A DNA stretch of 63,442 nucleotides, counting the filler, from Rhabdomonas costata (lineage: Eukaryota): assembly GCA_019059605.1 (NCBI GenBank). It is 55 parts of 55 records of this genome, joined end to end, with 100 filler letters (N's around TTAATTAATTAA, not from the genome) between each part and the next. Parts side by side here need not be neighbours in the genome. Positions count along the whole stretch, not along the records: positions 11,552 to 12,607 come from JAHMHO010031029.1; 54 more parts are not named here. The stretch is one strand, 5' to 3'. The notes below the pieces were generated by a model that did no database searches, was not told where the DNA came from, and worked only from the letters and a program-made list of their open reading frames with translations. A program made the position numbers and the translations under genes. Shown piece after piece: positions 11,552 through 15,206 of this stretch. Each line of letters starts with the position of its first letter. Positions within the stretch are counted from its first letter, which is position 1.

Positions 11552-11762
11552 CATCAAACAGTTTTTTCATTGCTTTCATGTTTTTCTCTTCTTGTATCTT
11601 ATCTTCAATGGCGCGTTTTCTTGGTTTTCTTGCAATTTTTTTAATTGCTTTGAGCTGATTAGGTATTGGGCGTATCAACTTCATGAATTCTTCCGTCCTT
11701 TTTTGTGTTTCATTTCTTATATCAATCATATTTATAATAGTACTAGAATTTATATTCTCCAT
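11552..11762 (-). CDS. Lys/Ile-rich hypothetical protein of the PolB element, 3'-truncated
   Basis: ATG at 11762 after an AT-rich tract, open to the contig end; AT-rich codon usage like the PolB ORF. Confidence 0.5.
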
Positions 11763-11894
11763 CTATACTATAGGTTTAGAATATAAATTTTAAAAATTAT
11801 ATCTTTTTTAATTTTATATATACTTATTTTCTTAAGCCTATAATTTTTAAAAATTATATATTTTTAAAAATTTTATATTTTTACTAGTAGTATA

Positions 11895-11967
11895 GTAAGT
11901 TGGGAGCACCGTCCCAGTTTTACGAAGCCTGCGGCTTCGGAAAACTAGGACGGTGCGCCCAACTTAC
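11895..11967. repeat. Hairpin: 35-bp arms (32/35 paired), 3-nt loop
   Basis: gtaagttgggagcaccgtcccagttttacgaagcc-tgc-ggcttcggaaaactaggacggtgcgcccaacttac. Confidence 0.95.
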
Positions 11968-12055
11968 GTTCACTTTCATTCGCCGCCGCGCCGCCGCCAT
12001 TAGACTATCTGTTTGAGAGAGAGCCGCTAAACTGACTGTCCTGTACAAGTTAAAT

Positions 12056-12157
12056 ATTACCCACCCCGTCCATAATATCTAGCGCATGATACCACCCAGT
12101 CCATCCATAATACCAAGCGCATAATACCACCCAGTCCAGACATAATCTCTAGCGCAT
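12056..12157. repeat. Three imperfect direct repeats of about 32-35 bp
   Basis: Units approximate taccacccagtcca..cataat.tctagcgcat and end at 12087, 12122 and 12157. Confidence 0.9.
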
Positions 12158-12212
12158 ACTAGGATATTTTTGTATAATTTATTAAAAAAATTATATAATA
12201 ATTATATAATTT

Positions 12213-12607
12213 TTATTCTGTTTTAATCTCTGTTTTAATATCTGTTTCTTCAAGCGGTGCTTTAATATCTTTTTCTTCAAGCGGAGCTGTACATAAACCA
12301 TCACACATAATATTTCGTTTGTTATATTTTGCACTAAGGCCTGTTTTCGATGTTTTATACCAGTATATAGAGCCGTTAAATTGTCTCATTCCTATATTTT
12401 CACACATCATATCAACGTTTGAAAATAGAACTTTTTTGAAATTTTTGTAGTTTAAAAGTTTGTTATTTTTGGTTTTCTGTACACCTTTACTCGAAAATTT
12501 GTCTTTCTTATTCTGTTCACTAAGACAATAATATAATTTACTTGATAAGCAGATCATCCCGTCACCGATGAACTCGGTTTTAAACAAACCAGCTGTTCGA
12601 TTGTCAT
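12213..12607 (-). CDS. Family B DNA polymerase, C-terminal part (Polinton/adintovirus-like), 5'-truncated
   Basis: DNRTAGLFKTEFIGDGMICLSSKLYYC...KFSSKGVQK...NIGMRQFNGSIYWYKTSKTGLSAKYNKRNIMCDGLCTAPL matches the RTxGLFKxE / KxY / KGV / KR..DG..T.PL pattern of this PolB group. Confidence 0.85.
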
Positions 12608-12765
12608 NNNNNNNNNNNNNNNNNNNNNNNNNNNNNNNNNNNNNNNNNNNNTTAATTAATTAANNNNNNNNNNNNNNNNNNNNNNNNNNNNNNNNNNNNN
12701 NNNNNNNATTTTATTCCTTCTTCATTCAGCGACTATATTTTTGGCAATAAAGAATATTTCGAACA

Positions 12766-13410
12766 ATGCTTGCCCGCAGGTTCGTTTCAGGCGCAATGCT
12801 GCGGCACTTTGCAACTAAAGTGAAGGAGACCACAGGCATTCCAGGGTATCCGGTGAACCCAAACTGGCGAATGGCCCTGCTTGACCTTTACCAGGACAAC
12901 CTCAACCTGGTTCAGAGGCTTCCCGAAGACTCAGCGTACCGCAAAGGTCTCACAAACATCACCCTGCATCACAAGGCCATTGTGGAGTCCAGCAGTGACT
13001 ATGATGTGGTGGAGATGAAGATTGGGCTGGGTCAGGTTGTTGCGTGCCTGTGATAACCGCTACTGTTTCCCGACTTACCACTTAAGCTGACTGGCTGCAC
13101 TCGCAGAAAACGGCACCCACTGGCGCTAATAGGCCGCTGCGTGCAATTACAGGTTGAACAGCTCATTAGGATTGCCGAGGGTGAGAAGAAGCTGATTCAA
13201 GACATGCTTGTGTGGCGTCTCTGGGAAGCCGACCACAGCATTCTCGACCGGATGGATGTCAGCTTCCGCACCACCATTGGAGGGCACTACAAGCCCCGGG
13301 CTTACGAAAAGATGCTGGACATGGAGGAGGAGAAGCTTTTGCTGGAGAAGCTGCAGAAGGAAGCCGAAGAAGAAAAGGTTCGGGTGACCGCTGGAGCTAA
13401 GCAGCAGTGA
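12766..13410 (+). CDS. NDUFA5: Complex I accessory subunit NDUFA5 (B13), complete; exons 12766-13035 and 13153-13410
   Basis: Mitochondrial-type presequence MLARRFVSGAMLRHFA; KETTGIPGYPVNPNWR...LPEDSAYRK...IGLGQ|VEQLIRIAEGEKKLIQDMLVWRLWE. The 117-nt GT-AG intron restores the conserved GQ-V/IE junction. Confidence 0.93.
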
Positions 13411-15206
13411 GCTCCTGCTTGTGTTGCCACCCATACTTCTTCTTCCTCTTCTTTGTCTTTGCCTTCGTCTTCAGAAATTCACTTCCTTTTTGTCGTTCTT
13501 GTATTACAATTGCTGCATCCTGGGCTGGTCACTGCTGCACTTCCCTCCTTCCTCTCCTCCTCCAGGCAGTGCGGCTCTTTCCTGTCACAAGATGGACACT
13601 GGTGCCCGTGTTCGTTCACGAATTCGCCGGTTTTCTGTTGTTTCTGGTGGCAAATGCGAAATCAATCATTGGGCAGGCCCTGTTCTGATTTTCCGTGAGT
13701 TTCCGAGTCATAGAAAATCCGAACAGGGCCTGCCCAATGATTGATTTCGCATTTGCCACCAAANNNNNNNNNNNNNNNNNNNNNNNNNNNNNNNNNNNNN
13801 NNNNNNNTTAATTAATTAANNNNNNNNNNNNNNNNNNNNNNNNNNNNNNNNNNNNNNNNNNNNGGTTTTGTGTGTGTCGCGTGTATGAATTGTGTGTATG
13901 TGTGTGTCCAACTCGAAAACCTATGCCTCACACCTCGTGCTTCTGTTTTTACGTGCCTCTGATTGCCCGACTCACCGTGAATTCTTTTGATACAGTACAC
14001 GTCGCTCCGCACTCTTCGCGTCACCCTAGACAGCAGTAGGGATTGTATTGGGGGGGGACCTTTATCAGCGTCTTGGACATTATGGATCGATTGGGACAAC
14101 TTTGGTTTATTGGCGGCTGGAGCGGACAGATGAGGCGGGGAAACAGCAAAAATTCTTCTTGTGCTGTTTGACAACGTTAAACGTTTGACGCCTCCCACCA
14201 CTACAAATAATAACACAACGGCTCCCAGCACTCTGGTGTGTGTTGAAGACGTGAGAGAAAAGCGAGAGATGGAGGAGCAAGCCTTGGGGAAAGCAGAAGA
14301 GTGCCAGACGCGATGACCAGAGTGTAGCTGGGCCTCAACCTGCTTCATGTTAATGTTGGACCCGGTCACCGGTCATCACCACCGTGTATTCTCGTCGTCA
14401 TTTGCTGTCTTCAGCGGTTTCACTGCATCGCCCTGTCGCCTTCTCACCCCTCCGGGCATGGATGTCATATTTGCTTTGTAAGCACACACGCTCTCAGGTG
14501 GAGCCCCCTCACGCGGTTGCGGAGGCCGCGGCTCCTGAGCCGGAGCTGCCAGTGGGGACCCTCTCGCCCTCACTGAAGATCACGGTGAAAGCCCTGCACA
14601 ACGCCGACTTGGATTAGTGCCCTCACTCACTCCACAATGGAGATCATCACAGAGCTGCTGCACGCACGTCCTCAAATTCGCACAAACACGCCCGTGCGCG
14701 TTCACACATACACGCCTCGCACACACGTAAATGCACGTCTGCACCGGGGAGACTGAAAGAAAACACGGCTTGATACTACGCGCTTCGGGCGCGTGGTGGA
14801 CTGCGACATCTGGAGGGACTTGCCGGTAGCTTGCTTTGTTTTCGGTGAAGGCTCATGTTTGGCGTGCGATTGGGTAGAGACACAGCAAAAGAGGCGGTAC
14901 CCACCCCCGCCCTCTTTTGNNNNNNNNNNNNNNNNNNNNNNNNNNNNNNNNNNNNNNNNNNNNTTAATTAATTAANNNNNNNNNNNNNNNNNNNNNNNNN
15001 NNNNNNNNNNNNNNNNNNNGTGTGGTTGTATATGATCCTGTTTGTATATTTTCGTTGTCATTAGGACCGGCGAACGGAAGGAAGACATTTGCCCTGGTCG
15101 GGCTTCTGTGAACCCGTTTCAAGGGCTGTTTGCATCGCATGGACATGCAGTTTTTGATTGTGGGCAGTTGGGTGGCAGTGATGAGGTTCCGGGCTATGCT
15201 ATGCAG

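Follow-up and report, generated by a model that had tools for sequence, protein, structure and literature searches.

Locus organization and genomic setting

The window, i.e., the whole stretch of 63,442 nucleotides analyzed here, is a series of unrelated contigs, 55 in all and each about 1056 bp long, with N spacers between them, and positions 11552-12607 correspond to one complete contig (JAHMHO010031029.1, G000:C31029) of the Rhabdomonas costata assembly (G000; 104,289 contigs, 97 Mb). The contig has a GC content of 31.7%, the minimum in the window, the next lowest contig being at 40%. Read on the minus strand, it carries the end of a PolB gene, a series of repeats leading to a hairpin and a terminus, a short filler, and the upstream region and first codons of a second PolB copy (Table 1).

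Information on the host was provided by the neighbouring contig, whose NDUFA5 product gave as top PDB match 8IUF (79.5 bits, against 53.3 for the next), a Euglena structure. This NDUFA5 gene (12708-13763) contains a GT-AG-type intron, and the contig ends with an exact inverted repeat, probably an amplification fold-back. Elsewhere in the window, the contig at 28902-29957 (GC 64%) showed one frame open on each strand across its entire length and returned no match in Pfam.

Table 1. Features of the contig, with window positions, strand and supporting evidence.
Feature	Position	Strand	Evidence
First 70 codons of the PolB of the second copy	11553..11762	-	Extension by L017; cut by the contig end
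Region upstream of the second PolB copy, AT-rich and with many palindromes	11763..11870	-	Repeat and copy comparison
AT-rich junction filler, about 15 nt	11871..11885	.	Absent from uninterrupted L007, L020, L027, L068, L209
Element terminus AGTAGTATA	11886..11894	+	Homology between copies ends here, flanks differ
Subterminal DNA hairpin, 73 nt, 35-nt arms	11895..11967	.	Folding z = -9.3
Inner segment of the hairpin-type end module	11968..12053	.	80-99% identity in 12 other contigs
Three 35-bp tandem repeats	12054..12158	.	Common to both element ends, inverted
AT-rich module with perfect 14-bp-arm palindrome across the PolB stop	12162..12214	.	Repeat analysis
Last 130 codons of protein-primed PolB	12213..12605	-	Open frame; homologs; model; pN/pS
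Variable-number 27-nt/12-nt slippage repeat in the PolB tail	12216..12287	-	Repeat analysis; copy comparison

The polymerase fragment

A reading made from the sequence alone (the sequence-only reading) had described an AT-rich PolB C-terminus without introns or internal stops, and this description was borne out by the 130-aa frame running from 12605 to 12213, which closes with the tail APLEEKDIK-APLEETDIK-TEIKTE before the stop codon. A check against DNA_pol_B_2 had also been proposed; it failed on the 130-aa fragment itself, for which the Pfam scan returned no match, but gave a positive answer for its homologs. The fragment matched 8 of 481 candidates at E ≤ 0.001 with 40-74% identity, one of them bearing PF03175 (DNA_pol_B_2), and the same domain was detected in 3 of 11 additional full-length homologs, bringing the count to 4 of the 16 PolB homologs scanned overall. 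Moreover, a Littorina protein bearing PF03175 could be aligned to the greater part of the 1283-aa homolog P0008.

The C-terminal 283 aa of a close PolB copy were then modelled with a pLDDT of 92, and the predicted model returned 17 structural matches at E ≤ 0.001, the best being the polymerases of bidnavirus-like, adintovirus and MELD viruses. Bidnavirus-like matches are given as a mark of the Alpha PolB class in an extract of Starrett et al. 2021 (PMC8502044). The PDB structure search with the same model gave no match at E ≤ 0.001, the best TM-score being 0.45 for phi29 polymerase, against 0.25 for an archaeal PolB, and the lowest E value in the PDB sequence search with the PolB profile was 0.29. 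Relatives of the PolB were not found in the IMG/VR scans. According to the predicted fold, the protein is a PolB of the Polinton/adintovirus protein-primed kind, as the sequence-only reading had proposed.

That reading had named a cellular polymerase as best match as the outcome contrary to it, and none was found at E ≤ 0.001 in the PDB sequence and structure searches. A cellular polymerase or an unrelated contaminant, to which the GC content far below that of the host might point, can be given a practically negligible probability: structurally the protein matches viral pPolBs, broken copies are found within GC-rich DNA, and host repeats recur in the flank of one sister end (see below).

The duplicated tail is indeed present in the window, but it turned out to be a variable slippage repeat, as the APLEE units number one, two or three according to the copy and the shortest copies lack the duplication. 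A functional role of this repeat was rejected on comparison of the copies. Comparison of the window PolB with six close copies returned pN/pS values of 0.03-0.17 at pS 0.13-0.30, and a value of 0.26, obtained from 20 codons, was calculated for L014. Frameshifts occurred in two copies of the group defined below as group A (L006 and L022), and stops were found in 15 of the 40 PolB matches, 36 of 235 candidates having been scored.

The element end and the junction with a second copy

The terminus AGTAGTATA, the hairpin, the inner segment, the 35-bp repeats and the AT palindrome were common to the copies, while the sequence outside 11886 differed from copy to copy. At the left end of the element, the sequence of the AT module recurs ahead of the first gene. 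The hairpin, the 35-bp repeats and the terminus had gone unmentioned in the sequence-only reading. As far as can be judged from these comparisons, the contig is the right-hand end of the element and not an internal piece. The terminus begins with AGTAGT (11886-11891), which was exact in 14 of the 18 hairpin ends and was not evident at most of the ends bearing the alternative outer module X described below; (AGT)2 is reported as the commonest end motif of vertebrate Mavericks in the relevant part of PMC8097293.

None of 200 shuffled sequences folded as well as the subterminal hairpin. Across the 18 ends (15 distinct), 11 of 32 pairs displayed at least two Watson-Crick types, in an ungapped comparison made with no shuffle control and in which two out-of-register copies break pairs. 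The Rfam search on the hairpin gave only four sub-threshold matches, which were taken as chance. A Helitron, with its 3' hairpin and CTRR end, was considered and rejected, since the base past the conserved end varies and the end reads ACTACT.

The co-oriented basic ORF noticed downstream of PolB in the sequence-only reading does exist (start at 11762, 70 aa, minus strand), but it is not a separate gene. Extension with L017 lengthened it to 232 aa, and the product showed 52% identity over 100 aa to residues 19-118 of P0008 (E 4e-26), identifying it as the PolB N-terminus of a second copy. Four contigs (L007, L015, L020 and L027) match the left part of the contig and continue without the hairpin, thus indicating that the contig joins the end of one copy to the PolB promoter of another.

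Nested and tandem insertions of such elements are known, as reported in parts of two preprints (bioRxiv 10.64898/2026.07.28.741278; 10.64898/2026.10.13.758929). The contig might also derive from a PolB-only unit, comprising promoter, PolB and hairpin end, that forms a small circle or tandem array and behaves as an autonomous replication module; the terminus meets the second copy just before the PolB promoter, at the very point of divergence of other upstream partners, and mobile replication modules have been proposed in sections of the latter preprint. This origin is nevertheless very improbable. The end-to-promoter junction occurs in one contig only, and overlaps from the second-copy PolB start, within an incomplete set, chain to integrase-bearing copies at 90% identity and to the contig's own C-terminal part only at 88%, a result that speaks slightly more for nesting than for a PolB-only circle.

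The AT palindrome at 11831-11870, upstream of the second PolB start, is the point of attachment of four or more distinct upstream sequences in different copies, and may represent a recombination hot spot or a module border.

A multi-copy family with virion genes

At least 39 other contigs match the window contig with 76-99% identity (40 of 79 candidates scored). The contig had been regarded as foreign to the host; it is AT-rich, as stated, but it does not stand alone, being one of many diverged copies, some of which are broken and joined to host-like DNA. Pieces of the family, some of them decayed, adjoin GC-rich host-like DNA, repeats in the flank of the sister end L063 recur in three of the window's host contigs, and in L167 a fibre piece is joined to a decayed LTR retrotransposon. 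The whole element, both ends together or a target-site duplication were found on none of the short contigs examined.

Overlapping contigs returned the order of the left arm, in which the end module is followed by several small ORFs and these by a fibre-like gene and a divergent penton. The fibre-like gene is long and Ser/Thr-rich, with PHROG tail matches at E 4e-7. The start of the penton (L263) showed 77% identity to P0011, whose model matched the mavirus penton (E 9e-9). The penton is linked via overlapping contigs at 82-96% identity which ties it to the family as a whole but not strictly to group A itself. The family also includes a parvovirus-type PLA2 (L156; PF08398, E 5e-7).

The companion genes suggested as a search target by the sequence-only reading were thus recovered in part, with integrase and penton present in the family; the search for the PF21738 major capsid gave no match, and its control was equally blank. 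The assignment to a dsDNA virus was upheld by the occurrence of the penton fold. On its gene content, the contig family is a dsDNA virus with putative virion genes and many diverged copies.

Some further observations concern these genes. In L239, L214, L190 and L164 the fibre-like gene exceeds 1100 codons and has many variants (82-97%), and L119, L242 and L251 are close relatives with a different tip. In L156:12-482 (G000:C81221) the PLA2 start continues in the same frame into the start of an integrase, by deletion or as a chimera. At least three further integrase-bearing families occur in the assembly, represented by L148 (G000:C10922), L145 (G000:C28799) and L153/L033/L200; their contexts comprise a different PolB class, a helicase with an endonuclease VII-like tail and a more distant PolB.

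Strong AT palindromes were detected behind 4 of 9 stops, each at the end of a gene run and two of them in one intergenic gap; equally strong ones occurred in 0-1 of 100 dinucleotide shuffles and in none of 82 coding windows. Terminator hairpins in virophages and transpovirons are described in part of PMC7031253 as a sign of Mimiviridae transcription. The palindromes at gene-run ends might tentatively suggest that a helper virus of the Mimiviridae type transcribes the element. A common TCTA late-promoter motif was rejected, as it occurred at 2 of 11 starts only.

Integrase in sister groups and its absence behind PolB in group A

The assembly gave 50 integrase matches. Among the 267 element loci compared, 12 contigs span the PolB end; six of them continue into an rve integrase and six into the end module. 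The window contig is among the latter, hereafter group A, in which the PolB stop abuts the left end copied in inverted orientation as far as the ATG of the first gene. Six metagenomic relatives (L095, L096, L098, L099, L100 and L101), i.e., those with usable downstream length out of 11 loci, show PolB directly followed by an integrase-type ORF, the rve domain being recognized in the L099 ORF with E 7e-12. In two of them, L096 and L099, the PolB end and the integrase are repeated around a GC-richer 1-kb segment, a layout expected of a short circle or of a tandem unit with truncated PolB.

In sister group B, the same hairpin-type repeat is present behind the integrase (L142) and ahead of the first left gene (L067 and L089). 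By this arrangement the group B repeats are a predicted canonical terminal-repeat pair, with the order PolB-integrase-terminal repeat. The ends of group A share about 160 bp in inverted orientation and differ in their outer parts in 4 of 5 informative left ends. In these four the hairpin is replaced by X, a conserved outer segment of 185 bp (e.g., L010:871-1055, G000:C14917), which folds weakly (-15 and -10.5 kcal/mol over 205 nt).

A PolB tree of 21 rows and 336 columns, from which L014 was left out as too short, placed the A copies in a cluster (86/90, not starred) within a G000 clade (98/97), the basal rows having the integrase. Since the A-type PolB diverged under purifying selection, the arrangement is old and has been maintained by selection, and is not a single dead deletion. 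Group A is most simply described as a putative derived sub-lineage without integrase behind PolB, on contigs that cover the left arm as far as the penton and the PolB end.

This coverage leaves room for a different account, in which group A is an ordinary autonomous Polinton or PLV whose integration gene was moved or replaced in the middle of the element (e.g., by a tyrosine recombinase), targeting TA-rich microsatellites, with (AGT)n slippage. PLVs often exchange their integration genes, as stated in parts of PMC12220804 and bioRxiv 10.64898/2026.07.28.741278, and the several sequences joining upstream of the PolB promoter imply that the gene content varies. On the other hand, none of the 14 contigs with an integrase N-terminus places it behind a known A-arm gene. 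Of those with upstream sequence, L204 has it behind a PolB-internal join, L145 behind a helicase and L156 in the PLA2 fusion, and in the others it follows a PolB end. We consider this account quite unlikely.

Flanks of the element ends

Low-complexity 40-nt flanks of TA/TAG/TACA type were found at 10 of 12 A hairpin ends and at all 8 X ends, as opposed to none of 5 B/C ends (Fisher p 0.003; low-complexity background 1.5% in host and 6.3% in element sequence), with an entropy cut-off of 3.9 that was set after viewing the flanks and with ends that are not fully independent, three A ends representing one junction type. L008 (A) and L053 (X) were dropped from these counts because of their short flanks. 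The partners to which X is linked through TA-rich filler are hairpin ends, a further X, GC-rich DNA and AT-rich ORFs.

Among the sequences joined to group A ends were GC-rich DNA, intronless ORFs of AT-rich composition and other A ends. The GC-rich flanks (L002, L003, L006, L009, L014 and L018) had no match among the small set of contigs compared, and are therefore host-like by composition only. The AT-rich intronless ORFs beside A ends (L055:13-519, L056:2-292, L061:3-743, L062:2-436 and L019:3-407) include an M16 peptidase-like protein (L055, assigned with very high confidence in the atlas), a ricin-type lectin domain and others. No relatives were found for three flank ORFs in IMG/VR and for the L061 flank ORF in the protein search. 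These AT-rich ORFs may be giant-virus DNA or DNA of other PLVs.

Exact fold-backs were found in 26 of the 267 element loci and in 2 of the 55 window contigs, which demonstrates that amplification chimeras occur. Group A might accordingly consist mainly of free linear virus genomes whose ends mis-primed on TA-rich templates during whole-genome amplification, giving rise to the varied junctions and fillers, that of the present contig included, only the integrase-bearing sisters being endogenous. The fold-back contigs are in line with this possibility, as are the A ends joining GC-rich DNA and viral-looking ORFs (L055, L056, L061, L062 and L019), the A ends joining each other (L005, L010, L012 and L054) or a PolB promoter, and the PolB differences between A copies, mostly synonymous as in a replicating population. 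However, the pS values up to 0.3 and the two frameshifted copies fit resident copies of different ages better, and fillers of tens to more than 100 bases of patchwork repeat would seem to go beyond simple microhomology priming. On balance, a mainly free state of group A is doubtful.

Comparison with known elements

Endogenous Polinton-type viruses are frequent in protists. The element works like a Polinton; among the diagnostic features of that group, the pPolB, the end motif and the penton are present. It shares with Maverick/Polinton elements the protein-primed PolB with bidnavirus-like matches, the (AGT)2 terminus, the single jelly-roll penton, the rve integrase (here in sister groups) and the parvovirus-type PLA2 of the family (L156). 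It differs from them in its protist host, in the integrase lying directly behind PolB, or not there in group A, in the long conserved subterminal hairpin and in the X outer module at most A left ends. The adintovirus label holds for the kind of PolB but not beyond it, as strict adintoviruses are an animal group in the pertinent section of PMC8502044; membership of Adintoviridae was discarded because the host contigs are protist-like and the penton model is closest to mavirus. A linear mitochondrial plasmid was likewise discarded, since the family has penton, fibre and integrase.

The metagenomic Polinton-like contigs L095-L102 are similar both in the PolB C-terminal fragment, with 61-74% identity to the ENA proteins P0003-P0008, and in the penton (61-77% identity). 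Unlike group A, they keep the PolB-integrase order wherever the downstream sequence suffices. AHEV_PLV1 and Ca_PLV1, as presented in part of PMC11296320, resemble group A in having PolB, terminal repeats and no detectable integration gene, and Ca_PLV1 is described there as integrated nonetheless, with integration in trans proposed. Those are single elements with insect hosts, whereas here a single genome also contains the integrase-bearing sisters against which the loss can be set, and the loss is accompanied by a change of junction type. The endogenous virophages and PLVs described from Halocafeteria seosinensis (bioRxiv 10.64898/2026.07.28.741278) share terminal-repeat palindromes and nested insertions; their palindromes occur mainly with non-pPolB replication genes, while the hairpin observed here accompanies a pPolB and lies 9 nt inside the terminus.

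A search of the main text of openly accessible papers found no description of this Polinton family, nor of a Polinton in euglenids, and the family is not described in the portions of PMC8547959 and PMC12455990 that cover such elements.

Proposed mechanism and significance

Taken together, we regard it as fairly probable that the contig belongs to an endogenous, multi-copy Polinton-type virus of a euglenid-like protist, with an integrase-less sub-lineage that inserts via a borrowed integrase or host repair. The integrase would have disappeared in one ancestor as its left end was copied to rebuild the right end. Replication of group A would still be protein-primed and start at the AGTAGT end, where the hairpin of the displaced strand is probably bound by the machinery for initiation or integration, and the genomes would be packed into virions. 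Its entry into chromosomes might use the integrase of a sister in trans or host break repair, and entry without an integrase of its own would explain the TA/TAG-rich junction filler.

A further reading, which we put forward as speculative and rather unlikely, describes group A as self-replicating, hetero-ended, integrase-free euglenid Polintons derived from integrase-bearing sisters, transcribed by a giant virus and inserted by error-prone end joining, with TA/TAG filler, into host chromosomes as well as giant-virus or other viral DNA. If true, it would provide a before-and-after record of a virus that goes on spreading in a genome past the loss of its integrase.

The added value of the present family lies in the contrast within one genome between integrase-bearing sisters with clean junctions and a group A that is under selection and has filler junctions. 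If confirmed by long reads, this contrast would make it possible to test directly by what route polinton-like viruses without an integrase become integrated, a question that PMC11296320 leaves open, and what function terminal hairpins serve in pPolB elements.
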